From an uncultured Planctomycetales bacterium (GTDB taxonomy: Bacteria; Planctomycetota; SBBH01), in the NCBI GenBank assembly GCA_964455625.1, contig CAYVXZ010000005.1, positions 9,632 to 73,631 of the forward strand: a DNA stretch of 64,000 nt. The letters run 5' to 3'. This document shows, in pieces, positions 1,688 to 36,889 of the stretch. The translations under genes were made by a program, and so were the position numbers. Under the pieces are notes generated by a model, which saw nothing but the letters and a program-made list of their open reading frames with translations, did not search any database and was not told the DNA's origin. Position 1 is the stretch's first letter, and each line of letters starts with the position of its first letter.

Positions 1688-3184
1688 TCAAGACTTGGGT
1701 CTCCTGTCGAGGATCCGCTGCTCCTTCAGGCGGTCCTCCATCCCGAGGCGCTTCGTCAGTTCCGGGAGGGTCGTCACCTCGATCCGGTTCGGGGCCACCT
1801 CGCAGTGCGCCTGGAACCGCGCCTGCAGGTCCTGGACCCAGTCGGCCGATCGGCCGGGCGCCTCGCGGAGCGCCACCGCGAGGACCATCTCGTCCAGCTC
1901 GAACGGGTCATCGTTCGCCTTCTGGATGACGATCTGCCATTCCTCGATCCGCGTCTCTCCCATCAGGAAATCGGAGATCTGGTTGAAGTCGACGAGCGTC
2001 CCCCGGATCTTCGAGAAGTTGAATTCATTCACGTTGGAAACGCGCCGCAGGTCCGACGAGACCCTCGGCATCGTCCGCCCGCACCCGGGGCACGGCGCCC
2101 AGGTGATTCCCCCCTGTGCGAGGTCGCCGGTCCGGTAGCGGACGACGCACGAGCCCCGCCACCCCAGGGAGGTGTAGACGACCTCGCCGGTCTCGCCCTC
2201 CGGGACCGGCTCACCGGTCTTGGGGTCCACGATCTCGACGAGGCTCATGTCCGGATACAGGTGGAAGCCGGCCGCCGCCCCCCCGCCGGGGCACTCGGGC
2301 CAGGCGGTCCGCGCCTCCGTCATCCCGTAGACGGAGATCACCTTGGGGTCTTTCGCACCGCGCTCCGAAAGAAGCGCCCTGATCCGGTCGCGGATCGGCT
2401 GCGTCGCCTTGTCCCCCCCCAGCACCACGAGGCGGACGGTCGAGAGGTCCACCCCTTGCGCCACCGCCTCCCGGAGCAGGTGATAGACGTATCCGGGGAC
2501 TCCCGCGAGGAACGTCGGCTTCACGCGCCCGATCGCCGCAAGACACCCGGCCGTCCCCATCACCTTGCCGCCACCGGTGTGAAGGAGGAGGACCCCCGCC
2601 GCGATGCCGGCGTAGTAGACCTGCCAGAACCCCAAGTGTGGAGCGAACGGGAAGAGGTTCAGCCCCCGATCGGCGGCGGCGGTGAGGTCCGCCACCTGGA
2701 AGATCCGGTTCCCCGCCTCCTTGACGATCTCGAGGTCATAGAGCGTGTAGAAAAACGGCGTCGGCGCGGCGCTCCGCCCCGTCGTGAACGTCATGAACGC
2801 CGGACGGTACTCGTGTCCCAAGAACTTCTGGACCTCGTCCTTTCCCTGGAGGAGCTTCCGGAGTCCGATCCCGACCAGGCGATCGAGCGGCGCCGACCGC
2901 CGGATCGACGCCTCGTCGGGGGCGAGCACCAGCTGGACCGGCCGACCGGCGTCCTCCTTCGTCGCGATCACCTGGTCTTTCGTCGTGAAAGGGAGCCTGC
3001 GGAGGTCGTCGACCGTGCGGATCTTCCGGAGGTCGACCTTATGCTCGGCAAGAAGCTTCTTATAGAACGGCGAATATGCCCCGACCTCCTCCCGCAGCCA
3101 GCGGGAGAGGACCTCCCCCTGCCACCTTTCAGCCTCTTCTTTTGTCAGTCGGTCCCAGCGGTCGCAGAGGACGGGTCGGCGCAT
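1688..3184 (-). CDS. phenylacetate-CoA ligase family adenylate-forming enzyme (CapK / coenzyme F390 synthetase-like)
   Basis: 498-aa ORF with FTTGRSAAPTPFFYTLYDLEIVKEAGNRIF and VYGMTEA AMP-binding motifs typical of the PaaK/CapK family. Confidence 0.7.
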   Translation of the reverse strand: MRRPVLCDRWDRLTKEEAERWQGEVLSRWLREEVGAYSPFYKKLLAEHKVDLRKIRTVDDLRRLPFTTKDQVIATKEDAGRPVQLVLAPDEASIRRSAPLDRLVGIGLRKLLQGKDEVQKFLGHEYRPAFMTFTTGRSAAPTPFFYTLYDLEIVKEAGNRIFQVADLTAAADRGLNLFPFAPHLGFWQVYYAGIAAGVLLLHTGGGKVMGTAGCLAAIGRVKPTFLAGVPGYVYHLLREAVAQGVDLSTVRLVVLGGDKATQPIRDRIRALLSERGAKDPKVISVYGMTEARTAWPECPGGGAAAGFHLYPDMSLVEIVDPKTGEPVPEGETGEVVYTSLGWRGSCVVRYRTGDLAQGGITWAPCPGCGRTMPRVSSDLRRVSNVNEFNFSKIRGTLVDFNQISDFLMGETRIEEWQIVIQKANDDPFELDEMVLAVALREAPGRSADWVQDLQARFQAHCEVAPNRIEVTTLPELTKRLGMEDRLKEQRILDRRPKS

Positions 3185-3338
3185 GCGGAGGCATCCTAGC
3201 AGAAGCGTCTGGGGGGAGACAGAAGCCAGGAGTCAGAAGAACAACGAATCTGAAAAATCGGCTTCCTCAGCGCATCAGGGATCCCCGCATCTTTCCTGCT
3301 GTCCTCCTGGCTCCTGACTCCTGTATTCTGACTCCTCC

Positions 3339-4331
3339 ATGAAGGTTCTCTTCCTGATCCAGGGGTTCGAGGTCCCGTCGAGCCGCTACCGGGTCCTGCA
3401 GTACCTGCCGGCCCTGAAAGCGGCCGGGATCGACGCCACGATCACGCCGTTCCCGGACACCTTGGCCGAGGAGCAGCGGATCTACGGGGGGGCCGGAGAG
3501 TACGACGTCGTCTTCATCCACCGGAAGCGCCTCTCGAAATACTGGATCCGGACGCTCCGGAAGGCCGCGAAGAAGATCGTCTACGACTTCGATGATGCCG
3601 TGATGTTCCGCGACACGCTGTCCGTCGGCGACCAGGAGTCGGTCCGTCGGCGCCGGCGGTTCGAGCGGACCTGCCGGATGGCCGATCTCGTGATCGCGGG
3701 GAACGCCTATCTGGCCGATTTCGCGAAGCCGCACAACGCGAATACCGTCATCTTGCCGACCGTGATCGATCTCGCCCGGTACGCCCCCCGGCGCTGGGGC
3801 GCGCAACCCGGGAAAGTCACGCTTGGCTGGATCGGCGATACGGGAAGCCTCGCCTACCTCGAATCGCAGAAGCCGCTCTTCGAGGCGATCGGGAAGGCGG
3901 TCCCGAACCTGCAGTTCAAGGTGATCTCGAGCCGCTTCCCGAAGTACGAGAACCTTCCCGTGATTCCCGCCCGATGGAGCGCCGAGACCGAGGTCGCGGA
4001 GCTCCAGTCGCTCGACATCGGCGTGATGCCGGTCCCCGACGATCCGTGGTCCAAAGGAAAGTGCGGCTTAAAACTCCTCCAGTACATGGCGGCGGGGGTC
4101 CCGGCGATCTCGTCCCCTGTCGGGGCGAATCTCGAGATCCTGGAAAGCGGCGTCCACGGCTTCCACGCCGCAACGGAGGCCGAGTGGATCAACGCGGTCC
4201 GGAAACTTGCCGGCGACGTCAAACTCCGCGAAAAACTGGGAAAGGCTGCCTTCGAGCGGGTCCGGAAGGCCTACTCCCTTGAGGTCGCGGCGCCCCGGTT
4301 CGTGGCGCTCGTCTCGCGCCCATCGGAATAG
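3339..4331 (+). CDS. glycosyltransferase, GT4/Glycos_transf_1 family
   Basis: 330-aa ORF; C-terminal GLKLLQYMAAGVPAISSPVGANLEIL matches the group-1 glycosyltransferase nucleotide-sugar binding region. Confidence 0.7.
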   Translation: MKVLFLIQGFEVPSSRYRVLQYLPALKAAGIDATITPFPDTLAEEQRIYGGAGEYDVVFIHRKRLSKYWIRTLRKAAKKIVYDFDDAVMFRDTLSVGDQESVRRRRRFERTCRMADLVIAGNAYLADFAKPHNANTVILPTVIDLARYAPRRWGAQPGKVTLGWIGDTGSLAYLESQKPLFEAIGKAVPNLQFKVISSRFPKYENLPVIPARWSAETEVAELQSLDIGVMPVPDDPWSKGKCGLKLLQYMAAGVPAISSPVGANLEILESGVHGFHAATEAEWINAVRKLAGDVKLREKLGKAAFERVRKAYSLEVAAPRFVALVSRPSE

Positions 4332-4341
4332 CGGGGCCATC

Positions 4342-7300
4342 GTGCACTCCGGCCGCCATTCGGGGCAGGGTTTCGCCCTCATCCTCGCGAGCGGCCTCCT
4401 GATGCTGATCCTCTTGAGCGCCTCGTCGCTTCTCGCGGTCGCCAGACAGGCGCTCACCCGCTCCGGGCACGCGACGGACCGGACACAGGCGGCCTTGACC
4501 GCGGCGAGCGGCATGGCATACGCCAGTATCCGCCTTCAGCAGGACCCCTATCCGAAGTATCTCGACACGCCGACCACACGCCCCGACACCTGGCATGCCC
4601 GCGAGCCGTTCAATACCCCCCTGGACCGGATGCTCAACGTTTCGTACGCCAGGGGGGAGCCCTGGAAGGACACGATCATTCTCGCCTCGGACGGCCACGA
4701 CAACGACGGGGACGGACTGAAGGACGAACCGGGGGAGGGGAACGGCCTCTTCACTCCCGGCGAGCGATATCAGGACCTGGACGGCGACGGACGCTACACC
4801 TCCTGGAGCGGGAGGTTGCGCGCCGGCGCCAGGACATCCGGCAATCGCTTCTCCCTGTCGATCGGGTCCCAGGACGGGAAGATCCCCGTCAATGGGGGTT
4901 ACCTGGACGATCTGGATCGCCAGCCCTACCCTTTCATCTTCGGCGGGAGCTGGGGCGTCCCCGATCACCGGGACCCCGCGGCCAGCCCCTATCACAAGGG
5001 GCTGGTCCATGTTCTCAACAACCTGGGCGCCGTAACCCGACCGGGCGGTGCCGGCACGCGGCGCCGGGATTACCGGTCGGGAATCCCCCTTGGGAGCGGC
5101 CACACCTTCGAGTTTTCATGGCTCGGCGAGGATCTCATCGCGGGCCGGCCGCCGGGAGGATATCGCTCGCTCGCGCAGATCCGGCAAACGCTTGCAGGCC
5201 TCGGGTATGCCCCGGCAGAGTGCGACCTGTTCCTTCCTTTCCTGGATGTCGGCCCCTACACCGGACCGATCGAGAGCGGCCGCGTTTCATACCGGAGTTC
5301 CGCCCCTTGGCCTTTCCCCGGCGCGGAAGGGGGCAATCCGGACGACTTCCCCTTTTCCCCTCCGATCGTCCTGTCGACCGCCCCGCGGGAGGTCTTGGCC
5401 TCCCTTTGGCGGTACCTGGCGAGTTCGCAGGACCTGCCCCCCGTCGCCAGCTCGCCGGCGGTGCCCCTGCAGCGCGTCTACGGCGAACCGGCCGGCGACA
5501 TGGCCACGGCCTCGAGATCCGGCGGCACCCCGATCCGGTTCCGCGCGGACGACTATTACGCCTACCACTTCATGATCTTCCCGGACGAATCGGAACTCCT
5601 GGCCGATACGGCCGCCTCGCTCCGCACCGGAGGTTCCGTATCATGGCAGGAGCTTTACAGCGCCATCCTCCAGAAGATCCCGACCCTGTTCTCTGTCGAT
5701 TACAACAATCTTGGAGGGGCCTCTTCTCTCTGCCCGGTCTACCAGCGCGCCTGGTTGCATGCGAAGGCGGATCTCGCCTTCCGGGCCCTGGCCCTGGACG
5801 CCCCCCCGATGGCCGGCCATTTTCACGGCATCGCGACCTGGGCTGGCTGGGGGCTCGACCGCGACCCCTCGACCAGCCCAGTCGAACAAGGGTCCGGCGT
5901 CGGCCTCGACTGGATCTACCAGGGGCCGATCCCCGCCAGCGAGACGTCCCCGCTGCCAAGCCGACCCTACGATGACGAGTACTGGTCCCTCACCAGCAGG
6001 CGCATCAAGCCGCAGGGAATCACGACCGCGCCCCCCTTGAGATTCCAGATCGAGTGCGCCGGGTCCGCAGGGCGGTCCAGGTACCGTGCGAACGGAAGTT
6101 TTCGGGCGGCCGATCCCCTCTATTTCGCCAGCCAGGAGGATTTCGAGATCCTGCGGCAAAACGTCTTCCTGGACCGGATCGGCGGCATCTCGACAGTCCT
6201 GGACGATCCGCCTCCTCCGGACCGCCGCGTCCGGATGTCGGACGGTGGACGGATCTACCCGCACCTGATCTCCCTCCCGAGAACGAACAGGCGCTCCACG
6301 TTCGCTCCCGGATCGGCGCCGTTTTTTCCGGCGGAGGGATACTCGCGCCTCTACGGCGCATTGACCCTCGCGCCCCGGGAAATCGGCCGGCGCGGCGCCC
6401 AACTGTACTGGACCTTTCCGGAGGATTTCGACGGCGTGCAGGACGCCCCGGGCACGGACGATTGGCACGAAGCGGACCCTGCCTATTCCCATCCCCCCTC
6501 CGACCCCATGGAGATTTACGAGAACGCGACCGATTTCTGGCCGGAGTTCCACCAGTACCGGAATCCCTCCCACACGGACGGAATGTTAAGCACTCTCCAC
6601 CCCTTTCAATGTCCGGGAATGAACGCCCCTTCCGGCACTCCCCTTCTGGCCTTCTCGGCCGATTTCTGGATCAACCTGTCCTACCCCTATCATGACAATC
6701 GCGCTGTTTTCCTGGTCTACAACGCGCAAAGGATAAGCGAGGGACACTGGAATCAGCATTTCATCAAGCTTTACGTCTCACGAGGCGATCCGTCCCAACC
6801 CGGAAAGCGCCCGTATGACGCCACGTTCCGGTTGAGCGTGGACGCCAAGGATCTCATGGGAATCCCCCGCGCCACGGCATCGCCCGCCTGGTTGATCCGG
6901 TCCCCCGGTCCAGCGTCCCCGCATACGCCCGGAATCTTCCACGTCGCCGTGACGGTCGCGAAGGATCCCCTGCTGGATGAAATGACCTACCGTCTCTACG
7001 TCAACGGCAGCAAATTCGCGGCTGACGGGTCCGAGATGAAACACCCGCACCTGCACCTGATCGCCGTCAAGGACGGTGAAAGCATGACTCTTTCCTACGG
7101 CGACGAGCTTCGCCTCTTCGAGACGGCCCTTCCCTCCGGGGAACCGGGCAGCATCTATTCAGCAGGCCGGTTCGTCCCCAGCGGCGCCTACAAATCCCCG
7201 CTGTATGTCTTTCACGAACCGGCCTCCTTCGGAAAGAGCCAATGGCTGGGGCTCATCCCCCCCGGCTTCGTCGACGTCTCGGGACAGCCTGTCGATCCAT

Positions 7301-7554
7301 TCCGCATCCTCGTCGAGGCGTACGGCACCGCGCCGGGCGACCTCGCCCATCCGAACCTGATCTGGCAAAGGACACTCGGGCCGTCCGGCACGGTCGACGA
7401 TCTGCCCCCGAACCCCGTCAAGTCGTTTCGCTACACGATCGAAATCGACTGCAACGACGTCGTCGGCGTCCTGGATGACTCGCCGGTTTTCGAATCGATC
7501 TGGTTCACGCTGCGGCGCCGCGGGCGGGCGCCTGTCTGGTCGGAGTGGGAATAG
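4342..7554 (+). CDS. giant (~1070 aa) pseudopilin-like protein, paralog 1 (GspK/PilX-like N-terminus, DxDxDG loops, LamG-like C-terminus)
   Basis: Start taken as the in-frame GTG at 4342, which has a GGGG RBS-like run upstream and yields VHSGRHSGQGFALILASGLLMLILLSASSLLAV (prepilin/PilX_N-like hydrophobic helix). Shares NPS[FY]ARGEPW, DGDGRYTxWSGRLR, PVNGG, GRPxGGYRS and 'LSTAPREVLASLW' (LNxAP, HhH/SAM-like) motifs with the proteins at 36890 and 40254. The C-terminus FHVAVTVAK...YRLYVNGSKF resembles a LamG/ConA-like domain. Confidence 0.6.
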   Translation: MHSGRHSGQGFALILASGLLMLILLSASSLLAVARQALTRSGHATDRTQAALTAASGMAYASIRLQQDPYPKYLDTPTTRPDTWHAREPFNTPLDRMLNVSYARGEPWKDTIILASDGHDNDGDGLKDEPGEGNGLFTPGERYQDLDGDGRYTSWSGRLRAGARTSGNRFSLSIGSQDGKIPVNGGYLDDLDRQPYPFIFGGSWGVPDHRDPAASPYHKGLVHVLNNLGAVTRPGGAGTRRRDYRSGIPLGSGHTFEFSWLGEDLIAGRPPGGYRSLAQIRQTLAGLGYAPAECDLFLPFLDVGPYTGPIESGRVSYRSSAPWPFPGAEGGNPDDFPFSPPIVLSTAPREVLASLWRYLASSQDLPPVASSPAVPLQRVYGEPAGDMATASRSGGTPIRFRADDYYAYHFMIFPDESELLADTAASLRTGGSVSWQELYSAILQKIPTLFSVDYNNLGGASSLCPVYQRAWLHAKADLAFRALALDAPPMAGHFHGIATWAGWGLDRDPSTSPVEQGSGVGLDWIYQGPIPASETSPLPSRPYDDEYWSLTSRRIKPQGITTAPPLRFQIECAGSAGRSRYRANGSFRAADPLYFASQEDFEILRQNVFLDRIGGISTVLDDPPPPDRRVRMSDGGRIYPHLISLPRTNRRSTFAPGSAPFFPAEGYSRLYGALTLAPREIGRRGAQLYWTFPEDFDGVQDAPGTDDWHEADPAYSHPPSDPMEIYENATDFWPEFHQYRNPSHTDGMLSTLHPFQCPGMNAPSGTPLLAFSADFWINLSYPYHDNRAVFLVYNAQRISEGHWNQHFIKLYVSRGDPSQPGKRPYDATFRLSVDAKDLMGIPRATASPAWLIRSPGPASPHTPGIFHVAVTVAKDPLLDEMTYRLYVNGSKFAADGSEMKHPHLHLIAVKDGESMTLSYGDELRLFETALPSGEPGSIYSAGRFVPSGAYKSPLYVFHEPASFGKSQWLGLIPPGFVDVSGQPVDPFRILVEAYGTAPGDLAHPNLIWQRTLGPSGTVDDLPPNPVKSFRYTIEIDCNDVVGVLDDSPVFESIWFTLRRRGRAPVWSEWE

Positions 7555-7564
7555 CGCTTTCAGG

Positions 7565-8212
7565 TCACGCTCCGCGAAGGCGTTTTACGGCCTCGGCGGG
7601 GTCCCTCGCGCGGAAGACCGCGGTGCCGGCCACGATGACATTGGCCCCGGCCTCGATCGCCTGACCGACGTTATCGACCGTGATCCCCCCGTCGATCTCG
7701 ACATCGAACCCGGGGCGCGCCCACTGGCGCACCTGGCGGACCTTCGCGAGAACCTCCGGGATGAATTTCTGGCCCGCGAACCCCGGAAAGACGCTCATGA
7801 CGAGGACAAGATCCGCGACGTCGAGCCAGGGCCTCACCCGTTCGGCGGGCGTGTCGGGATTGATCGTGAGGCCGGCCTTCGCCCCCAGGGCATGGATGCG
7901 GTCGATCAGGGGGCGCGTCTTCGCCCCCGAGACCGCCTCGACGTGGAACGAGACCGACTGCGCCCCCGCCTTCACGAACGGCTCCGCGTACGCCTCCGGG
8001 TCCGTCACCATCAGGTGCGCGTCGAAATAGAGCTTCGAGACGGGGCGAAGTGCCGCGACGACGCTCGGGCCGATCGTCAGGTTCGGGACGAAGTGGCCGT
8101 CCATCACGTCAAGATGGAGCCACTCGGCCCCGGCCCGCTCGACGACGCCGATCTCCTCCTTCAGCTTCGCGAAATCGGCGGAAAGAAGCGACGGCGCGAC
8201 GGTGACGGCCAT
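7565..8212 (-). CDS. rpe: ribulose-phosphate 3-epimerase
   Basis: MAVTVAPSLLSADFAKLKEEI...HLDVMDGHFVPNLTIGP...DGGI is a strong Rpe match; start ATG at 8212-8210. Confidence 0.9.
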   Translation of the reverse strand: MAVTVAPSLLSADFAKLKEEIGVVERAGAEWLHLDVMDGHFVPNLTIGPSVVAALRPVSKLYFDAHLMVTDPEAYAEPFVKAGAQSVSFHVEAVSGAKTRPLIDRIHALGAKAGLTINPDTPAERVRPWLDVADLVLVMSVFPGFAGQKFIPEVLAKVRQVRQWARPGFDVEIDGGITVDNVGQAIEAGANVIVAGTAVFRARDPAEAVKRLRGA

Positions 8213-8213
8213 G

Positions 8214-9415
8214 TCAGGCGGAGGCCCCCAGATTTCCCGAGAGGGCATCCAGACCCGGCAGGGTCCCCTGCGCCATGTACTCGAGCGACGCCCCGCCGCC
8301 GGTGGAGACATGCGCCATCCGCGCGGCAAGCCCCATCTCCTCGACCGCGGAGGCGCTGTCCCCGCCCCCCACCACGACCTTCGTCCGCGGGCCCGCCCCT
8401 GCCAGGATCTCCGCGAGCTTCCGCGTTCCGCTGGCGAACGCCGGGACCTCGAAGACGCCGACCGGTCCGTTCCAGAGGACGGAACGGGCCTTCGCGATCT
8501 CGGCCGCATACGCCGCGACGGTCTTCGGCCCCACGTCCACCCCCATCCGGTCGGCCGAGATCCCCGGCCCTTCGGTGACGGTCGCCGCATCCGGCTTGAA
8601 CTCGGTCACGGTGACGTGATCGAGCGGAAGCACCACCATCGCGCCGCGTGCCTGCGCGCGCGCGAGGATCTTCCCCGCGGTCGCCACCATGTCGTGTTCG
8701 AAGCGGGACTTCCCGATCGGGATCTTCCGCGCGGCAAGGAAGGTATAGGCCATCGCGCCGCCGATCAGGACCGCATCCACCCGGTCGACCAAAGACTCCA
8801 GGATCTCGATCTTGTCCGACACCTTCGCCCCGCCCAGGATCGCGGCGAACGGCCGCTCGGGGTCCTTGACGAGCTTTCCCAGGTGCGTGACCTCGGCCGC
8901 CACGAGAAGCCCCGCCGCCGACGGCAGGAAGCGCGTCACGGCGGCGATCGAGGCATGCTCCCGATGGCTCGCCCCGAAGGCGTCGTTCACATAGCAGTCG
9001 GCGAGCGCGGCGAGCCCCTTCGCGAAGGCGGTCTCGTTCTCTTCTTCCTCCATGTGGAATCGGAGGTTCTCGAGCAGGATGACGCCCCCCGGCTTCAAGC
9101 TCCGGGCCGCCGCCTCGGCCGCGGGGCCGACGCAGTCGGGGACGAGCGGAACGGGCTGTTTCAGGATCTCGGAGAGCCGCTTCGCGACGATCGCCAGGCT
9201 GTACTTGGGGTCGTTCCCTTTCCCTCCCTTGGGGGGACGCCCGAAATGGCTCGCGAGGACGCACGACCCCCCGCGCGCCAGGATCTCCCGGATCGTCGGG
9301 ACCGTCCGCACGATCCGGCTGTCGCTCGTGATCTTCCCGTCCACCACCGGCACGTTGAAATCGCACCGGACGAGGACGCGCTTTCCGCGGACGTCGAGGT
9401 CGCGCAGGAGCTTCA

Positions 9416-9416
<1 letters not shown>
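8214..9416 (-). CDS. pgk: phosphoglycerate kinase
   Basis: MKLLRDLDVRGKRVLVRCDFNVPV...ILLENLRFH...GGGAS are classic Pgk motifs. Start ATG at 9416-9414 overlaps the gap stop (ATGA). Confidence 0.9.
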
Positions 9417-13076
<3,660 letters not shown>

Positions 13077-13080
<4 letters not shown>

Positions 13081-15521
13081 TGGACAGGCTCCGCGTCCGG
13101 CGCGACCAGGCGCCGGAAGAACCGGATGTTCTGCATCACGACCCCTTCCTCCCCCTCGAAATTCTTGGACGTCAGGAAGTGCGAGTCGCCGATCACGACC
13201 AGGCGCCCGGAGCCGACCTTCTGCTCCGCGACGACCGGATATCCCGCGATCATCGCCAGGGTCTGTCCGCCGCGCACCGGCCAGGCCTCCCAGAAATGGG
13301 GCCTTTGCGCCGCCTCCAGCGCTTCCCCGGTCACCGTCGCGTAGTCGCGCCCCAGGGGAACGTCGCCGATCCCCATCCCGAAGCGCGCCAGGAACGGCTC
13401 GGCCGCGGCCCGCTCCTCCCAGCCGACCGCAAGGATGTAGGTCCCCCCCTTGTGGAGGAACGACTGGACCGACTGCGCCTCGCGCTCGCCGTACGGGCGT
13501 GTCGGCGCGACGGAGACGATCACGTCCGCCTCGGCCACCTGCGCCGGGTCGAAATCATCCATCCCGACCGTGAAGTACCCCTCGCGCATCAGGTTCAGGG
13601 AGACGCCCATGATCCCGTCGGGCCGCCACCCTTCCATCGCGTGAAAGCCGAGCCGCGAGTCGTCGACCAGCGCCACCTTCCCGGAAAAGGGCGGGACCTT
13701 CCGGTCAGCGGCGGCGCCTCGGGCGAGATTTCCTGCCAGGAGAAGGACGGTCGCGGCGAGCGGGACGGCGGACGGCCTGCCTCGCGCCGCCAGAAGCGCC
13801 AGGACGCCGCACGCCGCCAGGAGCACCACACCCAGGCGGTCGCGCCAGTACGGCACCGCCGCGCGGCCGGAACCCGCCAGCCACCGGAAGACGCGCGTCA
13901 CGAACGGATGGGAATGGATCAGGATCCCGTTCACGAAGCCGGAGGTGTCCCCGGCGACGATCACGCGTCCCTTTCCCGCGTTCTCGGCGGCGACGAGCGG
14001 GAGGTCCCCCAGCGGCTCTCCCGGCTCGAAATCGAGCGTCCCCAGGTATCCCCGCTCGCTGTTGGCGAGAACCCCCGGGTCCGAATAACCGTACCGCCCG
14101 ATCACGATCGGCGCGGCCGGGTAGCGCACCTCGAGAGACGCCCCGACGACAGATCCGGCCTCGTTGGCGGCGTCGCCGAGGGAGGCGGTCGTCGCGTGGG
14201 GAAAGTACTGGTAGGAATGGAGCCAGCCGCCGACGAAGAAATCGGCCGAGTCGAACGCGATCCGCGTGCGCGCGCCGACCGCCTCCAGGGGCTCGTTCAC
14301 CAGCACCTTGCCGTGCTTCCAGCAGGTGTGGTCCCCCAGGACCAGGAGGCCTCCCCCCGCATGGACGAATTCCCGGATCGCCGCGAGCGCCGGGGCCTCA
14401 AACAGCTCGTCCTGGTTGATGATCACGAGAATGTCGGCACCGGCGAGCCGGTCCGGCGTGATCTCGGGAGCGAGCGCCCCCTCCCATCCGATCGCCGCGA
14501 CCAGCTTCGGAAGGTTCCCGAACATCCCGGAGCTGTAGCTCCCGTAGTTCCCGTGCTCGGGGACCATCCAGTTCAGGAACCCCTTCTCGTAGAAGACGAC
14601 GCGGCACCGCTCGGCCTTCGGCGGGACCGGCCGGTTCGCCAGTGCCCAGACGCCCAGGAGCCCGGCCGCAAGGGAAGCCAGGAGCAGTTTCTTCCGGCCC
14701 CCCGGCTCGCTGTCCGGATCCCGGGCGCCCGCGCGGGAGAAGCGCCAGGCAAAGAACGCGGCGACCGCCCCGACCAGGGGCGGGAAAAGGACAGGCAGGC
14801 GGACCGGCCAGAGCGCGGCGAAAAAGCGCGCGGCCCCTTCGCCCCACGCGGCCCGCCCGGCCGGCGCGGGAAGGAGCGCCGGGCAGTCGGCCCAGAAGGC
14901 GAGCCATGCGAGGAAGGCCGCCGCGACCGCGGCAAGCCCCCCCGCCAGCGCCGGCCGGCTCCGGGAAGCCGAGCGCCACCAGGCGCCGAGAACGACCGCG
15001 AGGGCGAGAACCGCCACGTGGATCCCGCTGAACGAGGGGCCCAGGTCCGGGCGCGTGAGCCACAGGGAAAGTCCCTGCACCTCGTACCAGGTGAGGAGGC
15101 TCGTCCCGGCGGCGTACTCGAAGAGGCCGAAGAGAAGGCTCGCCGCCGCGAGACCCGACATGGGACTCTCCGTCCGCCCCCGCGCCGACGCGGCGGCGGA
15201 AAGCCCGGTAAAGGAAAGCGCGATCCCGAAAAAGCGGACCGCCGGATGCGCGGGAAGGAAGGCGAGGCCGGCAAGCGCCAGGACCCATCCGGCGAGCGCC
15301 CGGACGCGGCCGCCGGACCGGACCGGGGCGGCCCCGAGACCGTCCAGGACGGCCGAGAGGAGGATCCCCAGCGCCGCGGCCGCCGCGTTGAACGGATGCG
15401 CGAACAGGCCGCACGCCTCGGCCGCGAACGACATTCCGAGAAACGCGGCCAGGACGGTCCAGAACGCCACGGAGCTAACGAGGGGTCTGCGGGGTGGTCT
15501 CTTCGGCCGGGGCCGGAGCAT
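13077..15521 (-). CDS. polytopic membrane protein with GldG/DUF4350-like domains, paralog B (start uncertain; possibly about 15433)
   Basis: 814-aa ORF; ADILVIINQDELFEAPALAAIREFVHAGGGLLVLGDHTCW is parallel to paralog A. Overlaps the upstream paralog by GTGA. The N-terminus overlaps the TPR gene end, so the true start is probably the internal Met (MSFAAEAC). Confidence 0.5.
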
Positions 15522-16497
15522 CGCCTGGCGCCTTCGGCGGCGCGAGGAGCTGTTCCCGGAATGCCCGGTAATGGTCGGCGTGTTCCGGCTTCAGGGCGAT
15601 GATCCGGTCGACGGTCGCCACCGCTTCCGGGATCCTCCCGGTCAGCTGGTAGCACCGCGCGAGGAGATCCAGGTAGGCGGACTCCTGGGGCGCTTCCCCC
15701 GAGGCCGCCTCCGCGAGCGCCAGCGCCTGCGGGATCTCGCGGTCATGCTCCACGTAGAAACGCGCCAGCGCGAACCGCGCGCCGACGGCGCCGGGCCCGC
15801 CCTGCCCGATCTGGCGCGTGTACCCGGAAATCGCCTGCTGGAACATCTTCTCGGCGGTCTCGGGCTGTCCCTGCGAGACGAAGATGTCCCCCAGGTGCTC
15901 GTAGACACAGGTGTAGTTCGGCTCCGTAGCGAGAACCTGTCCGTAGACGGCGATCGCCTCCTCGAAGCGCCCCGTCGCCTTCAGGATGTCGGCGATCCGG
16001 TGGTTGGCGAGGGTGCAGTTGTGATGCTCCTTCAGCGCCTCGCGGAACTCCGCCAGGGCCTCCTCGTGCCGTCCCGCGGCGGCCAGCTCGTTCCCCTTCT
16101 GGAAGCGCGGTCCGTTGTGGTCGTGGTACTGGCCATGGCCGCCGTGACCCCGGGCCAGCTGGGCCTGGAGCCCCGCGACGTCGAGCCCCGGCTGTGCCGC
16201 CGCCTCGGGGGGCGCCGCCCGCGGCGCGGCCCCATGCCCGGCCGGGACGCGCGCGTCATCCTCGCGGAACCGGTCGTACGCCTTGTCGAGGGTCGACTTG
16301 TAGAGCGGGCTCATGGGGGCGTCCTCGAAAAGCGCCGCGTCCGACATGAAGAGCCCCGCGGCAACAGCGAGGGCGAGTCCCCCTCCGACAAGCGTGCTGG
16401 CGGTCGTTCCCATGGCCGGAGAGCCTATCAGAGAGCACCCGAAACGCCAGCGCCAGCGCCGCAAAATATTCGATGAAGATTCCACGTCGGTCGGCAA
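15475..16497 (-). CDS. secreted TPR-repeat protein (alternative start at 16413, MGTTASTLVGG signal peptide)
   Basis: TPR-like repeats (AEFREALKEHHNCTLANHRIADILKATGRFEEAIAVYGQVL...); N-terminal hydrophobic signal. Confidence 0.55.
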   Translation of the reverse strand: MPTDVESSSNILRRWRWRFGCSLIGSPAMGTTASTLVGGGLALAVAAGLFMSDAALFEDAPMSPLYKSTLDKAYDRFREDDARVPAGHGAAPRAAPPEAAAQPGLDVAGLQAQLARGHGGHGQYHDHNGPRFQKGNELAAAGRHEEALAEFREALKEHHNCTLANHRIADILKATGRFEEAIAVYGQVLATEPNYTCVYEHLGDIFVSQGQPETAEKMFQQAISGYTRQIGQGGPGAVGARFALARFYVEHDREIPQALALAEAASGEAPQESAYLDLLARCYQLTGRIPEAVATVDRIIALKPEHADHYRAFREQLLAPPKAPGDAPAPAEETTPQTPR

Positions 16498-16642: not shown

Positions 16643-17920
16643 CTATCGCGCCGCGTTCCGCACGGTCTCGGAGGGATCCGATCCCCCGATCCGCGCGAGC
16701 TCTTCGGCCGCCTCGCGCGTTCCCAGGGAGCGAAGCGCGTAGACCGTCTGAAGGCGCCCGGAGTCGGGTTGCGCGCCGAAATTCCCCATGAGCGCGCGCA
16801 CCGCCCCCCCGCGGTCGACGCGCGAGACGGCCTGCGCCGCACCCAGGCGCACCTGGAACGGCAGGCGGTCGTCCCGGGCCGTCTGCTCGAAGACGTCCAG
16901 GTTCCGGCGCAGGCGGTCCGCCTGGAAGCTCGCCCACGCCTCCGGCGGCATCTCCCCCGGCCGGCCGGCGCGCAGCTCCGCGAGCATCTGGTCCTGGGCG
17001 CGCCCGTCGCCGGCGCGCGCCAGGGCCGCCAGGTACGCCTCCTGGACGCCCGGCGGGGCGGATCGCGCCGCCTCCCACAGGCGTTCCCGGTTTTCCGGGC
17101 TCTCCTGGCAGCTCCAGACAAGCCCCCCCGAGATCGCCATGCGGTCCTCCGGCGAGGAACCCGGCGAGAGAAGAATCGCCATGTCCGCCAGGGTGTCGCC
17201 GCGGCGCGCCAGCCCCGCCAGGATCGCCTGCCGGGCGATCCGGTCCGGCGCGTCCTCGAGGCGCGCGAGCAGGAATTCCCGGGCCTCGCCCCCCTCGACG
17301 CCCGACAGGATCCCGATCAGGTGGTAGCGGACCCCGCTCTCCTGCTCCTCCGACGCGCTCCAGAGCGTCCCGAGGGCATCCGGGCCGCCGATCCGGGCGA
17401 TCATGTGCGCGATCCCCAGGCCGTCGCCGGGCGATTCCGCCAGGGTTTCCCGCAGGCGCGTCCCGAGCTCCGGCAGGAGCGCCTCGACGACCCCCGGAAC
17501 GGGGTTCTTCCGGAACTCCTCGATCAGGGCGAAGGCCGCCCCGTACCCCTTTCCTCCCTGCGCGAGGGCGCCCAGGAGCATGTCGGCGAAGGAACGCGCC
17601 TCGCCGGACGCCAGGGCGGACCGCCCCTTCGCGACCAGGGAAGGATCGGCCCCTTCCGCCGTCGGACGCGCGGGAAGCCCGCCTCCGGCATCGGGCAGGT
17701 CGGCCGGGGCCGCGAGACGCCGGAGGATCTGGACCTCCTTGCGCAGGCGATCGGCCTCCGACTCGGATTTCTTCAGGGACGTCTCCAGGCGTACGATGTC
17801 GCCGCGGGCGGAAGAGCGCTCCCGGTCCGCGGCGGCGCCGCTCCCGAAGATGTACCCGACACAGCCGGCGACGCCGGCCGCCCCCAGGACCCCGGCGAAC
17901 AGGAGGAACCGGGCCGTCAC
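16643..17920 (-). CDS. membrane-anchored coiled-coil / HEAT-like repeat protein (hypothetical)
   Basis: 425 aa; N-terminal TM segment; coiled-coil (LETSLKKSESEADRLRKEVQILRR); repeated helical ARM/HEAT-like units. Confidence 0.45.
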   Translation of the reverse strand: MTARFLLFAGVLGAAGVAGCVGYIFGSGAAADRERSSARGDIVRLETSLKKSESEADRLRKEVQILRRLAAPADLPDAGGGLPARPTAEGADPSLVAKGRSALASGEARSFADMLLGALAQGGKGYGAAFALIEEFRKNPVPGVVEALLPELGTRLRETLAESPGDGLGIAHMIARIGGPDALGTLWSASEEQESGVRYHLIGILSGVEGGEAREFLLARLEDAPDRIARQAILAGLARRGDTLADMAILLSPGSSPEDRMAISGGLVWSCQESPENRERLWEAARSAPPGVQEAYLAALARAGDGRAQDQMLAELRAGRPGEMPPEAWASFQADRLRRNLDVFEQTARDDRLPFQVRLGAAQAVSRVDRGGAVRALMGNFGAQPDSGRLQTVYALRSLGTREAAEELARIGGSDPSETVRNAAR

Positions 17921-17921: not shown

Positions 17922-18311
17922 CTATTCGGGCCCCGCGGGGGCCTGCGCCGGAAGCGCCAGCCATGGCTGGGGCAGGAGCTCGCCGTCGTGGACCGGGATC
18001 TCCGGAAAGACGCGCGCGACGGGGATCTCCGGAAAGCGCGGCAGCGTCTCCTTCGTGAAGACCGACCGGAACGCGATCGCGCAGGCGAGGAAGACGGCGC
18101 CGATCGCGGCGAGCGAGAGAAGGTTCTCCTGCAGGCGCGCGCGCCTCTCCCGCAGGGTCACCTGCTCGGCGTGCATCTCCACGAGGTGGCGCCCCGGCGT
18201 GATCGGCTTTCCGCAGGCGGCGCAGAAGACGATCCCGGCGAGGTTCGCGTGTCCGCAGCCGCCGCACTTCACCGGGCCGCTCCTTCCAGCGACTCCGCCT
18301 GCCGGCGGCAT
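17922..18311 (-). CDS. zinc-ribbon domain membrane protein (hypothetical)
   Basis: VKCGGCGHANLAGIVFCAACGKPI is a CxxC...CxxC zinc ribbon, followed by one TM helix. Confidence 0.5.
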   Translation of the reverse strand: MPPAGGVAGRSGPVKCGGCGHANLAGIVFCAACGKPITPGRHLVEMHAEQVTLRERRARLQENLLSLAAIGAVFLACAIAFRSVFTKETLPRFPEIPVARVFPEIPVHDGELLPQPWLALPAQAPAGPE

Positions 18312-19606
18312 TCGTCGGCCTTGGCCGGCAGGTCCATCCGGCCGTAGAGGACGGCGAGATTGCGCCAGACTATGGGGCTTCCCGCGTCCCGTCCGGCCGC
18401 CTCTTCCAGGCGGCGCACGGCGATGTCGGGGTTCTCACCGCCCAGGACGTCGAGCACGATCCGGTTGTTCCCCGCCGCCGCCGCGGCCTGCGGGGGAATC
18501 CGGTCGGGAGGAATGCCCGCGTAGACGGCGCGCCAGTCGGCGAGCGCCTTCCCGCCCGGCGCGGGGACGACGCGCGACGCGCCCGCCGAAAGCGCCAGGC
18601 GGTTCATCGCCGCCACCGGATCCTTCCCGCCCGAGAGCACGTTCCAGCGTTCCGCGGCGGCGAACATCCCGTCGGCGCGGGCGCGGGCCGGGCCGTCGGC
18701 GGACCCCTTCATGTCGCGCACAAGGACCACCCCTGCCAGGTTCGCCAGGCGCGCCGCGGCGGACGGATCGATCCCGGGAACCCCCTCCACCTTCCGGACC
18801 AGCGCCTCCGCGGCCGCCACGTCCTTCTCCGCGAGGGTTCCGGCCGCGAGCGACACCAGGAGCCGCAGGCGCTCGCGACGCAGTTCCACCGACAGGATCA
18901 GGCCCGGCAGGCGGTCGGTCGATCCCGCCGCGGGCGGCTCGGCCCGGCCCGCCACCCAGCGGGCCTGGTCCATGTGTCGCGCCGCGTCGGCCAGGCTTCC
19001 CCGGCGCTCGGCGATCGTGGCCAGCCCCAGCAGGGACTCCACGGTCGCACGCCAGCCGGCCGGCTCGGTCTCCTTCCCCGCCAGGACCTTCCTCAAGTGG
19101 CCTTCCGTCCGGTCGAGGTCCCCCTTGCGCGCCGCGCAGGCGGCGAGGTTCACGAGCGGCTCGGGGGCCCCCGGGCAGCGGGCCGCCAGCCGCTCGATCG
19201 CGGCCGCGAGATCCGCGTCGACCCGGCCCCGCCCGATCGCCGCCGCGTGCAGGGCGGCCTCCGCGCGCGCCGGATGCCCCGGCGCGGACGCCACCGGGTC
19301 CCCGACGCGCTCCCGGACCGCCAGCGCCAGGAAGCCGGCGTCCTCGTACCCCGGCAGGATGCGGGCCGCCTCTTCCCCCGCCGACGCGGCCTCGAGGAAG
19401 CGCCCCTCGCGCCAGGCGGCGAGCCCCCTCCGGAAGGCGCGGCCGGCCGTGAACTCGTCCCATCCGGACGCGGCGACCGCAAGGCCGAGCGCGAAGAGGA
19501 GCAGCGTCCCGCCCGCCATGGCCATCGTCGGGCGGTCGAAGAGGTCCAGGAACGAGACGCGCGCCCTGCTCATCTCAAAAGAAGAGAATCGCCCCGTCCA
19601 CGGCAT
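18269..19606 (-). CDS. membrane-anchored TPR-like helical repeat protein (hypothetical)
   Basis: 445 aa; N-terminal TM (GGTLLLFALGLAVAASG); helical repeats. In an apparent operon with the zinc-ribbon and HEAT-like genes. Confidence 0.4.
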   Translation of the reverse strand: MPWTGRFSSFEMSRARVSFLDLFDRPTMAMAGGTLLLFALGLAVAASGWDEFTAGRAFRRGLAAWREGRFLEAASAGEEAARILPGYEDAGFLALAVRERVGDPVASAPGHPARAEAALHAAAIGRGRVDADLAAAIERLAARCPGAPEPLVNLAACAARKGDLDRTEGHLRKVLAGKETEPAGWRATVESLLGLATIAERRGSLADAARHMDQARWVAGRAEPPAAGSTDRLPGLILSVELRRERLRLLVSLAAGTLAEKDVAAAEALVRKVEGVPGIDPSAAARLANLAGVVLVRDMKGSADGPARARADGMFAAAERWNVLSGGKDPVAAMNRLALSAGASRVVPAPGGKALADWRAVYAGIPPDRIPPQAAAAAGNNRIVLDVLGGENPDIAVRRLEEAAGRDAGSPIVWRNLAVLYGRMDLPAKADECRRQAESLEGAAR

Positions 19607-25852: not shown

Positions 25853-26121
25853 CCGATTCCCCGCGTACTTTCCCGCGTCTCGGCCTCGCCGCCACCGCTG
25901 CGGCCGGGATCGCCCTCTGCCTCCATGTCGGGGTCGGTTGGCTGGACGCCGGGCGCCCGCAACTCCGGCCGACCGGGCATCTGTCACTGGTTGCCGCCGC
26001 CGCCTGGATCTCCGCGACGGTGCCCGCCCTCCTCTTCGCGCTCCTCGAACGGAGGAACCGGGCCTGGTCCCTCGGTGTGCTGGGGGTCTGCCTGGCCGGT
26101 CACCTTCTCATTCTTCGTTGA
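25849..26121 (+). CDS. small hypothetical membrane protein
   Basis: 90 aa with two or three hydrophobic segments; start overlaps the GrpB stop (ATGA coupling). Confidence 0.35.
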   Translation: MTDSPRTFPRLGLAATAAAGIALCLHVGVGWLDAGRPQLRPTGHLSLVAAAAWISATVPALLFALLERRNRAWSLGVLGVCLAGHLLILR

Positions 26122-26140
26122 CGCTCCAACCGCCAGGTTT

Positions 26141-26665
26141 TCATGGCGGCTCCTTGAAGCCGATTCGTCTCGTTGCGACGGCCGGCGGCTCCATCAACTG
26201 CCGGATCGCTCCCAAAATCGCCTGGATCGCGCCGTCGTGGATCGACACCTTGCGCTCGAGTTCATCGAGCTTCCGGGCCAGCTCCTTGTGGACGGCCAGC
26301 GCCTCCCTCAAACGGATAAAGGCACGCACGATGAGAACGCTCGTCCGGACCGCCACGGAACTGTTGAGGACGCTCGCCAGCATCAGCGCCCCATGCTCGG
26401 TGAAGGCGCGGGGACGGCTGGGCGAGAATTTCAACCCCATGAGGTGGTCGCAATTTGCGACCACCTCGTCTTTCTCCGTCTGCGTCAGCTTGAACATGAA
26501 GTCCGGCGGGAAGCGGTCGAGATTCCGTTTCACCTGCTCATTCAAACGCTTCGTCGAAACGCCATACAGCCTGGCCAGATCGGCATCCAGCATCACGCGG
26601 TGCCCTCGGACAACGAAGATCCGCCGCTCGATCCGGTTCAATGCCCCCATCAGAGCAGGATACAC
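26141..26665 (-). CDS. ORF6N-domain protein (KilA-N/antirepressor-like, mobile-element associated)
   Basis: IFVVRGHRVMLDADLARLYGVSTKRLNEQVKRNLDRFPPDFMFKLT matches the ORF6N domain. Confidence 0.7.
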   Translation of the reverse strand: MYPALMGALNRIERRIFVVRGHRVMLDADLARLYGVSTKRLNEQVKRNLDRFPPDFMFKLTQTEKDEVVANCDHLMGLKFSPSRPRAFTEHGALMLASVLNSSVAVRTSVLIVRAFIRLREALAVHKELARKLDELERKVSIHDGAIQAILGAIRQLMEPPAVATRRIGFKEPP

Positions 26666-26685
26666 CCGCCGAGGAATAATGCAAA

Positions 26686-33365: not shown

Positions 33366-33418
33366 GACCCGTCCTTTCTGGCATGTATGCCCTTGTTTCC
33401 CCACGACGGGAATATCAA

Positions 33419-33434
33419 GCATATTCCGTGCCAA
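33419..33434 (-). promoter_or_regulatory. sigma-54 (-24/-12) promoter upstream of EF-hand gene A
   Basis: Minus strand reads TTGGCACGGAATATGC, i.e. TGGCACG-N4-ATGC against consensus TGGCACG-N4-TTGCW; about 54 nt upstream of the start codon. Confidence 0.6.
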
Positions 33435-33651
33435 TGGTCATGCCGGGTCAGAAAGCCAGGGGCGATCCGGAGAGCGCTCTGAAATCCGACAGGTGCCGGG
33501 AATACCCGCACCAAAGAGGGTAGAGGGTGTCGAGACCGCGCCGGGGACGTCAGCCAGCGGGAGTGTTCCCACGGAGGCCCAGGTCGAAGCACGAAAGATG
33601 AAGCAGCGTGGAGCAGAATCCCCTCCTCAAATTCACCATTCTCCGATTGTT

Positions 33652-36774: not shown

Positions 36775-36889
36775 ATCAAGAATGAACCGTTTTCAGGAAT
36801 AACGGAAACCGGTCGCACGCGACCTGCTCTAACCCCTTCCAGGTCAATCCCCAAAAACATCCGCCGCGCGCACCCCGATTGCATGCAGA

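Follow-up and report, generated by a model that had tools for sequence, protein, structure and literature searches.

A candidate giant GspK-type minor pseudopilin with a lectin-like module from an uncultured Planctomycetales bacterium

Gene A, encoded on the plus strand (4342–7554) of a 64,000-nt stretch of DNA from an uncultured Planctomycetales bacterium (hereafter the window), raises two questions: to what kind of protein family does its 1070-aa product belong, and does its place behind a glycosyltransferase gene tie it to surface polysaccharide? The full ORF around it spans 4207–7554 and ends in a TAG stop. Translated from the GTG at 4342, the product agrees in length with an NCBI-sourced member of its cluster (P0039, 1070 aa, 99.9% identity), and this start brings the conserved leader-Gly-hydrophobic N-terminus into register with the rest of the family.

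Two further genes in the window are related to gene A: paralog D (36890–40267, plus strand, 1125 aa), which has weak matches to Laminin_G_3 and T2SSK, and paralog E (40254–43460, plus strand, 1068 aa from ATG 40254), whose first 14 nt are shared with the end of D. The sequence-only reading of this DNA had taken gene A to be the third paralog of this tandem pair, and BLASTP bears this out: A matches D with an E-value of 3.5e-27 (34% identity over 323 aa) and E with an E-value of 4.8e-24 (25% over 711 aa), and an additional C-terminal segment of 140 aa is aligned between A and E. When composition correction is switched off, the scores are 115 and 113 bits, as against a maximum of 35.4 bits in 400 comparisons with shuffled sequences. 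In gene A the named family motifs are NVSYARGEPW (aa 99), DGDGRYTSWSGRLR (aa 147), PVNGG (aa 182), GRPPGGYRS (aa 268) and LSTAPREVLASLW (aa 344), the first having been listed earlier as NPSYARGEPW, which is the version of D. In a three-way alignment of A, D and E, all of them fall in the same columns, and QEDFE and a C-terminal SFR(Y/W/F)...PVFE are further common blocks. Since the motifs are positionally conserved and the scores lie far above those of shuffled sequences, a high-GC composition artefact is excluded as their source.

The broader suspicion that the similarity is compositional, or that the ORF is no real gene, draws on the base composition of the window, which is 63–75% GC across most of its length, with long spurious ORFs frequent on both strands. 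We give this suspicion practically no weight and regard it as refuted. The codon positions of gene A show a GC pattern typical for coding sequence (GC3 = 0.80), the E-values to its paralogs are composition-corrected, the shuffled controls stay far below the real scores, full-length homologs exist in many assemblies at identities down to 25–30%, and the AF2 model of the protein is confident (pLDDT 80.7, pTM 0.85).

It had also been suggested that the family is expanding. Each paralog has its own ortholog in other assemblies, namely P0002 at locus L007 for A (64% identity), P0111 for D (61%) and P0105 for E (66%). Thus, A, D and E are old paralogs whose split is ancient, not the product of a recent expansion. 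At E<1e-30, a profile search collects 207 clusters, and almost all of them have lengths of 950–1200 aa. Neither Pfam nor NCBIfam has a model for the family, every match in A, D, E and a set of 26 members staying below its cut-off, and no retrieved family sequence carries a source-supplied name.

N-terminal statistics, a GspK match and the AF2 model together mark out a class III-like signal followed by a long helix (4342–4542, plus strand). In gene A, the leader VHSGRHSGQG (aa 1–10) precedes FALILASGLLMLILL with a G|F junction, the predicted helix covers aa 7–67, and the roughly 20 hydrophobic residues of alpha1N are FALILASGLLMLILLSASSLLAV. Across the family, the leader is short and mostly basic or hydrophilic, G10 is invariant or nearly so in the alignments, and a conserved hydrophobic start, (I/V/F)(A/V)L(V/I)L, follows the Gly. 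This signature is present in 123 of 160 family sequences, with a median leader of 9 aa, Gly at −1 and Arg as the commonest residue at −2 and −3; the Leu at +3 is fixed by the search pattern. At +5, 83 of the 123 have Leu, followed by Val, Phe, Met and others, and none has Glu. The NCBIfam GspK model (NF037980) matches aa 9–96 of A through model positions 2–88 of 307 (E 3.4e-5; 23.6 bits against a 130-bit cut-off), and it matches the N-terminus in four of the 26 members. In addition, an N-terminal profile of the family aligns from residue 2–3 of all five E. coli pseudopilins (GspG–K), with GspK scoring best at 12.7 bits, and gives no alignment to the transmembrane helices of GspF, GspL and GspM (at most 1.4 bits). 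An hhalign comparison with E. coli GspK aligns only the hydrophobic start of 21 residues, and N_methyl of Pfam, or IPR012902, has no match in A, D, E or the 26 members at E-values up to 0.1–1. The N-terminus of the family reads as a GspK-type class III signal. The pilins known to lack Glu5 are of the GspK/PilX type and sit at the tip; its absence here points to the K-type and is compatible with membership of the pilin/pseudopilin superfamily.

The NVSYARGEPW block and two DxDxDG-type loops, DGHDNDGDGLKDEPGEGNG and DLDGDGRYTSWSGRLR (4636–4821, plus strand), are conserved in register in the paralogs and the family, and these acidic loops probably bind Ca2+. Farther on lies a helix-hairpin-helix-like (HhH) motif, EDLIAGRPPGGYRSLAQIRQTLAGLG (aa 263–288; 5128–5205, plus strand), with matches to T2SSK, HHH_3 and RuvA_C. 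T2SSK (PF03934) scores 17.5 bits on gene A (E 0.0055; cut-off 24.2 bits) and is the recurrent top Pfam match on this same motif, through one and the same part of the profile, in five of ten members, including A, D and E, always below threshold. The motif appears to resemble the alpha-domain of GspK. In the AF2 model, the elements follow one another as alpha1, a beta strand at 168–176, a helical region at about 197–501 and beta strands at 567–595, an order compatible with an HhH-type alpha-domain inserted in a pilin fold. Foldseek matches the model to the XcpGHIJK pseudopilus model with a probability of 0.94 over 431 columns (rank 34), the TM-score of this XcpX-type match being low, at 0.36 on the target. 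When the N-terminal 560 aa were modelled alone, the fold was poor and the structure search found nothing. Given the GspK-type signal, the sub-threshold GspK and T2SSK matches and the Foldseek match, the earlier label "pseudopilin-like" is a fair one.

The C-terminal half of gene A is beta-rich (6559–7551, plus strand; approximate boundaries, from Foldseek and secondary structure). It is predicted to hold a LamG/ConA-like jelly roll at about aa 740–935, with the signature HVAVTV...RLYVNGS...DELRLFETAL, and a terminal beta-sandwich at about aa 945–1070, both limits again approximate. Against the PDB, Foldseek relates the model to the LamG domain of PAPP-A, legume lectins, GH16 and CBM40 (E 2.5e-5 to 1e-2), and against BFVD to LamG-like jellyroll proteins (E 5.6e-12). 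Laminin_G_3 (PF13385) matches four of the 26 members below threshold, at best with 20.9 bits against 27.6, and has no match in gene A itself. Because the modelled fold of this half is a LamG/ConA-like jelly roll, a role in adhesion or binding, as first proposed from the sequence, is plausible. The family of gene A is an undescribed one of proteins of about 1,000 residues that combine a GspK-like N-terminus with a lectin-like jelly-roll domain.

These features are best explained if gene A is an ancient paralog in a group of giant GspK-type minor pseudopilins fused to a lectin-like module, a reading to which we assign a probability of roughly 0.58. The protein would insert in the cytoplasmic membrane through its N-terminal helix, undergo processing after Gly10 at the hands of a prepilin peptidase, and take up the capping or tip position in a type IV filament or pseudopilus, as GspK or PilX does. 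The missing Glu5 would be tolerable, because a tip subunit needs none. The LamG module would then be presented at the tip, where it may bind a glycan or protein ligand. Several observations count against this reading: all GspK matches lie below curated cut-offs, for NF037980 and T2SSK alike, the hhalign comparison to E. coli GspK is limited to 21 residues, the Xcp match has its low TM-score, there is no match of the N_methyl/IPR012902 type, and there is no filament machinery near the loci. Indeed, no gene for a prepilin peptidase, secretin, assembly ATPase or platform protein is found in the 64-kb window or adjoining the homologs, the sole exception being a T2SSE-type ATPase about 7 kb from P0004 in locus L011, and the canonical prepilin motif G-F-T-L-x-E is absent from every frame of the window and 13 related loci. 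Because neither pilus machinery nor a canonical pilin gene lies nearby, assembly into a filament is something that we infer.

What does lie nearby is a different set of genes. A secreted HEAT-repeat protein (33652–34386, minus strand, 244 aa, Pfam HEAT_2) is encoded beside the D/E cluster; it is shorter than its counterparts elsewhere (330–460 aa) and homologous to HEAT genes adjoining the giants in loci L002, L006, L007/8, L009/10 and L011. Such companions, which have N-terminal signal peptides and a common N-terminal motif, occur in seven of ten distinct loci in addition to the window, and the family genes themselves come as one to three tandem copies together with these partners. Directly upstream of D is a gene for a sigma-54 enhancer-binding protein (34522–36774, plus strand, 5′ end approximate; Pfam Sigma54_activat, E 1.4e-64), which is kept beside D-type genes in loci L013 (70% identity) and L006. 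ECF sigma factors with a FecR-type anti-sigma are further recurrent neighbours of family members. For a giant pseudopilin, the HEAT-repeat proteins would probably be periplasmic partners or chaperones, and the other paralogs would be expressed under dedicated regulators, either the sigma-54 enhancer-binding protein or an ECF sigma with its anti-sigma.

The same neighbours would also fit a signalling or envelope module, and one may argue that gene A encodes a bitopic, membrane-anchored envelope protein and no filament subunit. The N-terminal helix would then be an uncleaved signal anchor, the large ectodomain, comprising the Ca-binding loops, a helical domain and the LamG jelly roll, would act in the periplasm or at the cell surface with its HEAT partner, perhaps in sensing or as a scaffold, and the likeness to GspK would mean either that the family descends from a pseudopilin and has lost pilus assembly or that it has converged on one. 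The lack of type IV filament machinery and canonical pilin genes near all loci and the sub-threshold standing of every GspK match speak for such an anchor. However, the near-invariant Gly with its (I/V/F)(A/V)L(V/I)L start and short basic leader is far more specific than a generic anchor would be, the N-terminal profile scores the N-termini of pseudopilins above other transmembrane helices, GspK is indicated independently by alpha1 and by the HhH motif, and genes for pilins frequently lie apart from those for their machinery. We consider a plain membrane anchor possible but rather unlikely. A more speculative proposal, which we hold to be doubtful, is that the family, its HEAT partner and the regulators form an unrecognised envelope apparatus of an uncultured, probably planctomycete-related lineage, derived from the tip pseudopilin GspK and standing outside the classical T2SS and T4P. 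It might be a regulated giant tip adhesin replacing the GspI/J/K cap, or else a device anchored in the membrane that binds or senses on its own, each genome having several paralogs of differing specificity.

The preferred reading, a giant GspK-type pseudopilin, leaves the second question, that of the polysaccharide. Upstream of gene A lies a gene for a GT-B glycosyltransferase (Glycos_transf_1, GT1/GT4-type; 3339–4331, plus strand, 330 aa, with Pfam and NCBIfam matches), whose TAG stop (4329–4331) is separated from the GTG of gene A by 10 nt, rather than the 12 bp given before. Because the gap is so short, the two genes are probably co-transcribed in this genome. The neighbouring adenylate-forming ligase of the PaaK/FlxY/F390-synthetase type ("CapK-like"; 1688–3184) has matches to Pfam AMP-binding and the NCBIfam models for FlxY (5.9e-38), PaaK (1.4e-35) and F390 synthetase (4e-14). 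GC3 and the ORF assign it to the minus strand, divergent from the glycosyltransferase, and it therefore stands outside the transcription unit of gene A. On the other side, gene A is convergent with rpe, the gene for ribulose-phosphate 3-epimerase (7565–8590, minus strand; Ribul_P_3_epim, E 4e-72), as had been noted: the TGA of rpe (7565–7567) and the TAG of gene A (7552–7554) are 10 nt apart. Since the Pfam domain begins only at aa 131 of the rpe ORF, the true rpe start is probably internal, near 8200.

From this arrangement, a possible tie of gene A to surface polysaccharide had been proposed. Gene A would then be co-expressed with a GT4 glycosyltransferase and a CapK-like ligase, and its product would bind or export the polymer or would itself be glycosylated. 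Besides the probable co-transcription with the glycosyltransferase, the LamG/ConA-like module is in favour, as a typical carbohydrate-binding fold, and pilins are often glycosylated. Against this, the neighbourhood of gene A offers a single glycosyltransferase and a single opposite-strand ligase, flanked by PrkA and by rpe/pgk/gap, and contains no Wzx/Wzy/Wza/Wzc, ABC-capsule or sugar-nucleotide genes; it is not an exopolysaccharide locus. Co-occurrence elsewhere was checked as well: tblastn found no homolog of the glycosyltransferase, the ligase or PrkA in 154 kb around 13 homolog-carrying loci, and no GT4 or adenylating ligase is among the called neighbours of family homologs. Moreover, P0002, the closest ortholog of gene A, has a HEAT-like gene on its upstream side and a HEAT gene on the other. 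The HEAT-like gene immediately upstream of P0002 has its ortholog (41%) in the window at 16643–17920 (minus strand, Pfam HEAT_2; tblastn E 3e-72 and 4e-59), about 9 kb from gene A, where it probably marks the ancestral context of A. Because P0002 sits between HEAT-type genes and the window ortholog is some distance off, the adjacency of gene A to the glycosyltransferase looks like the outcome of a rearrangement in this genome alone. Apart from possible co-transcription, its place there is probably without functional significance, and a polysaccharide tie is very improbable. The case also calls for caution, as a glycosyltransferase gene 10 nt away in a single genome is no evidence for a polysaccharide link.

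How, then, does gene A compare with known systems? The nearest is GspK/XcpX, the tip minor pseudopilin of the T2SS (NF037980, PF03934), with which the family shares a short leader ending in Gly, a hydrophobic start of the (V/I/M)AL(I/L) type that lacks Glu5, a long alpha1 helix and what looks like a helical insertion with an HhH-like RPxGG(Y/F)xSxxxL motif. To this come the matches to the two GspK models, both below threshold, and the Foldseek match to the Xcp pseudopilus model. In contrast to GspK, which has about 320 aa, the family proteins reach about 1,000 aa, three times that size; their insertion is greatly enlarged, and GspK has no counterpart of their beta-rich C-terminal half of roughly 500 aa. 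They score far under the GspK family cut-offs, and their tandem genes are accompanied by HEAT-repeat partners and not by gspI/J/H or any other T2SS gene. Most known modular pilins are small, with annotated domains, and modular pilins are thought to explain many of the functions gained by simple filaments. Modular pilins with a PF13385 lectin module are a known, frequent architecture, and GspK itself is regarded as a modular pilin (PMC8179133). In Streptococcus sanguinis, PilC joins a pilin module to a ConA-like lectin (PF13385) and PilB joins one to vWA (PMC8179133). Like these, gene A would carry a bulky binding module on an N-terminal pilin-type module, probably displayed at the tip, and its extra module belongs to the same ConA/LamG superfamily as that of PilC. 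However, PilC and PilB carry the canonical class III signal (IPR012902), Glu5 included, and their genes lie in pil operons, whereas gene A is GspK-like, lacks Glu5, an N_methyl match and a nearby pilus operon, and encodes a far larger protein. Very large ligand-binding tip subunits or partners of type IV filaments are also known, namely Thermus ComZ, ETEC CofB and the PilY1/PilC adhesins (PMC8179133). Gene A resembles them in its very large size and in the ligand binding at a filament tip proposed for it, and PDB searches gave no sequence or fold match to any of them. The gene A protein lacks the beta-propeller of PilY1, which does not belong to the pilins.

In summary, the family would extend the modular-pilin idea to GspK-type tip subunits of about three times the normal size with a lectin-like module, of which several ancient paralogs are kept per genome and paired with HEAT-repeat proteins. 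It comprises hundreds of clusters for which there is no database model. If its members are indeed displayed on filaments, they would be candidates for adhesion or substrate capture in bacteria that are poorly known; otherwise, they would represent a pseudopilin scaffold re-used for another function of the cell envelope.

Gene A lies in an open reading frame at 4207-7554 (+), in which a GTG at 4342 gives a product of 1070 aa and brings the N-terminus into family register; P0039, an NCBI-sourced protein in A's 90% cluster, is also 1070 aa long and is 99.9% identical to A. The GC content of A by codon position (0.62/0.54/0.80) has the pattern of a coding frame. Family motifs occur at aa 99, 147, 182, 268 and 344, and those quoted in the sequence-only reading are present in A, except that A has NVSYARGEPW and the NPSYARGEPW version belongs to gene D (36890-40267, +). 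The proposal that A is a third paralog of the tandem pair formed by D and E (40254-43460, +) is borne out by BLASTP, in which A is 34% identical to D over 323 aa (E 3.5e-27) and 25% identical to E over 711 aa (E 4.8e-24), with a C-terminal segment aligning in addition. In a three-way alignment every motif falls in identical columns, and the conserved blocks extend over the full length of the three proteins, with QEDFE and the C-terminal SFRx...PVFE in addition to the motifs. A compositional artefact is excluded, since with composition correction switched off A scores 115 bits with D and 113 bits with E, against a maximum of 35.4 bits for shuffled A (400 comparisons), and the motifs are in register.

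The three genes belong to a large family. When 5.8 billion proteins were searched by word index, 38 relatives came up, all of about 900-1200 aa and without Pfam domains or source names, and a profile run exhaustively against 1.84 billion cluster representatives gave 207 matches at E<1e-30, 569 at E<1e-10 and 3061 at E<1e-3; nearly all of the top 150 are full-length (950-1200 aa). None of 26 family members matches any Pfam or NCBIfam model at its cut-off, sequence searches with A and the family profile gave nothing significant among PDB chains, and a second word-indexed search with the N-terminal alignment found known family members only, with no annotated bridge to GspK, the tip minor pseudopilin of type II secretion. 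The species-representative genome scan yielded a single locus, L003, from a Planctomycetales MAG. Literature searches for giant GspK-like pseudopilins of PVC bacteria brought up one relevant paper, on modular pilins, and no account of this family. For each of the three window genes there is a close ortholog of its own: P0002 for A (64%), P0111 for D (61%) and P0105 for E (66%). Between A and either D or E, identity is no more than 25-34%; thus, these are three ancient subfamilies, and the earlier notion of an expanding family gives way to one without recent expansion.

N-terminal statistics were taken from 123 of 160 family sequences. The leader is Arg-rich with a median of nine residues and Gly at -1, followed by I/V/F at +1, A/V at +2, a Leu at +3 that is set by the search pattern itself, and V/I at +4; at +5 stands Leu or a different apolar residue, in no case Glu, and about 20 apolar residues come next. 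Pseudopilins of the GspK class lack Glu5. Judged by its residues, the family N-terminus is of the GspK-class pseudopilin pattern. The NCBIfam GspK model aligns its positions 2-88 with aa 9-96 of A (E 3.4e-5; 23.6 bits against a 130-bit cut-off) and also matches three further family members. An HMM built locally from family N-termini gives alignments that start at residue 2-3 of all five E. coli pseudopilins, scoring best with GspK (12.7 bits; GspJ 10.6, GspG 6.2) and 1.4 bits or less with the transmembrane helices of GspF, GspL and GspM, while in hhalign against E. coli K-12 GspK the aligned region is the hydrophobic start alone. A tblastn search of plasmids for a varied set of GspK sequences yielded E. 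coli almost exclusively. A second GspK signal comes from the HhH motif RPxGG(Y/F)RSxxxL, which sits inside the predicted helical region of A: PF03934 (T2SSK) is the sole recurrent Pfam match on the excised segment, in five of ten members and always below the 24.2-bit cut-off (E 0.0055 for A, 0.0056 for D, 0.034 for E), and in four of the five, A, D and E among them, it falls in one part of the profile. The HhH models HHH_3 and RuvA_C also match this segment below cut-off.

The AlphaFold2 model of whole A is confident (pLDDT 80.7, pTM 0.85). It has a helix (aa 7-67) and a strand (168-176), which are followed by a largely helical region (about 197-501), three long strands (567-595) and a beta-rich C-terminal half. 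Between the helix and the first strand stand NVSYARGEPW and two acidic DxDxDG-type loops, which are probable Ca2+ sites. In a Foldseek search against the PDB the top matches are LamG/ConA-like domains (PAPP-A, legume lectins, GH16, CBM40; E 2.5e-5 to 1e-2), and a chain of the XcpGHIJK pseudopilus model appears at rank 34 (probability 0.94, 431 columns, TM 0.36 on the target). Among viral predicted structures, 'LamG-like jellyroll' proteins match best (E 5.6e-12), and Laminin_G_3, again sub-threshold, is the only other recurrent Pfam match in the family. When aa 1-560 were modelled alone the result was poor (pLDDT 64) and Foldseek returned no matches with it; on these models, the N-terminal half seems to require the remaining protein, or a deeper alignment.

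For comparison, 13 loci (10 distinct; 154 kb in total) were fetched around family members in other assemblies. In seven of the ten distinct loci (L001, L002, L006, L007/8, L009/10, L011 and L014) a HEAT_2-repeat protein of 330-460 aa with a Sec signal adjoins a giant, as we call members of the family, or lies one or two genes away. These HEAT partners form a distinct family with a common N-terminal motif (...L.S.D...RE.A...L..WG...P......LP...DPE....), and six of them match by tblastn the window gene at 33652-34386 (-), whose product is C-terminally shorter (244 aa). Tandem giants occur in L003, L004, L006, L007, L013 and L014. MacB-type tripartite ABC sets (ATPase, MacB_PCD/FtsX permease and HlyD adaptor) adjoin giants in the window, beside E (44274-47487, -), and in L003 (6172-9865, -). 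The transporter was rejected as a conserved partner because similarity is detectable in the ATPase domains only (43%), and its position beside giants is possibly coincidence.

The sequence-only reading raised a possible tie to surface polysaccharide, with A next to exopolysaccharide-type genes. Directly 5' of A is a GT-B glycosyltransferase of GT1/GT4 type (3339-4331, +), preceded by a PaaK/FlxY/F390-type adenylating ligase (1688-3184, -) and PrkA (2-1648, -); rpe, pgk and gap follow 3' of A on the minus strand. The glycosyltransferase is indeed immediately upstream, with a gap of 10 nt rather than 12, and A and rpe are convergent as described, their stops likewise 10 nt apart. The CapK/F390-type ligase is nearby, but it lies on the minus strand, divergent from the glycosyltransferase, and is therefore outside A's unit. 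The window otherwise holds nothing resembling a polysaccharide locus, and tblastn found no homolog of the glycosyltransferase, ligase or PrkA in the 154 kb of comparative loci. In L007 the gene order around the ortholog A' (64% identical to A) is HEAT - 92 aa - 412 aa - A' - HEAT - 118 aa - giant, and the window ortholog of the 412-aa HEAT-like gene (16643-17920, -) is about 9 kb from A; thus, from gene order, the junction between the glycosyltransferase and A looks like a rearrangement product of this lineage. An exopolysaccharide-tied specialisation of A is very improbable: all that speaks for it is the gap of 10 nt, seen in a single genome, and the general repute of LamG folds as carbohydrate binders.

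Several features of the window were recorded besides. The ligase/glycosyltransferase intergenic region contains a 39-nt imperfect inverted repeat (3201-3239/3311-3349; 77% complementary) with a perfect 11-nt core, AGGAGTCAGAA/TTCTGACTCCT, which may be the operator of a common regulator, and a tandem CTCCTGxxTxCTGA repeat immediately precedes the glycosyltransferase start. A search of 3100-7800 for sigma-70-like promoters and intrinsic terminators gave neither. The longest rpe frame (7565-8590, -) places about 130 aa before the Pfam domain and overlaps the longest pgk frame (8214-9599, -), which places about 64 aa before its own; the true starts are probably internal. Paralogous adjacent large genes at 10501-13080 (-) and 13077-15521 (-) carry GldG/ABC_transp_aux/DUF4350 domains and are followed by TPR genes (15475-16497 and 18269-19606). 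GC falls to about 0.58 at 26001-28000 and 62001-64000, against 0.66-0.75 elsewhere, and these stretches may be foreign or non-coding DNA; the ORF at 25925-26920 has no Pfam match. The window contains no rRNA or tRNA.

Regulatory genes recur beside the giants. The sigma-54 enhancer-binding protein (EBP) gene upstream of D (34522-36774, +) shares 70% identity with its counterpart at the equivalent position of L013, where the order is EBP-D'-E'-third giant, and a relative also lies beside the trio of giants in L006. ECF sigma/anti-sigma pairs, with anti-sigma factors of zf-HC2 or FecR type, are directly beside giants in L002 (2325-4224) and L014 (3176-4889), which suggests that expression of the giants depends on envelope signals in some lineages. 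A sigma-54 promoter search allowing up to two mismatches gave 36 matches against 38 expected by chance. The candidate TGGCGC-N5-TCGC, 25 nt 5' of A, was rejected, as it is not conserved upstream of A's orthologs. Two near-consensus putative sigma-54 promoters, TGGCACGGAATATGC at 33419-33433 (-) and TGGCACGGGAAATGC at 44167-44181 (-), precede paralogous EF-hand genes (32748-33437, -, and 43528-44151, -) that bracket the cluster of HEAT, EBP, D and E genes; the EBP may control both. Just 5' of D, GCGCACCCCGATTGC at 36868-36882 aligns with AAGCATGCCGTTTGC of L013 (about 4795-4810) as a conserved -24/-12-like element without the canonical GG, and it stops only about 8 nt before D's annotated ATG, so that either D's start or the promoter call is doubtful.

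A, D and E are most economically read as giant modular minor pseudopilins. In each, a GspK-type pilin module whose helical insertion is much enlarged would be joined to a LamG-type binding module; the protein would be processed by prepilin peptidase and incorporated at a filament tip, the LamG-type module would bind a ligand, and the HEAT partner may have a role alongside. A capping subunit would be consistent with the missing Glu5. Domain make-up, paralogy, family size and conserved partners are the established parts of this reading. The main rival, that the three are membrane-anchored envelope proteins no longer entering a filament, is in our view the less likely, at odds that still deserve respect: the 64-kb window shows no genes resembling type II secretion or type IV pilus machinery, other pilin genes are wholly absent nearby, with the canonical prepilin motif (G-F/M-T/S-L-x-E) found nowhere in the window or the 13 loci, whichever frame is read, and the context is rich in regulators and HEAT genes. 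As pseudopilins, A, D and E follow the modular design of PilB and PilC of S. sanguinis, for which the 'modular pilin' principle was described; pilin plus PF13385 ranks among the commonest modular architectures, and GspK itself is cited as a modular pilin (PMC8179133). Modular pilins and pseudopilins that carry a lectin module are already known as a kind of protein; the apparent novelty lies in this family as such, in its size and K-type module, in its organisation as multiple paralogs and in its HEAT partner. A, D and E offer a solid lead into an uncharacterised family of envelope proteins, for which assembly into a filament is proposed.
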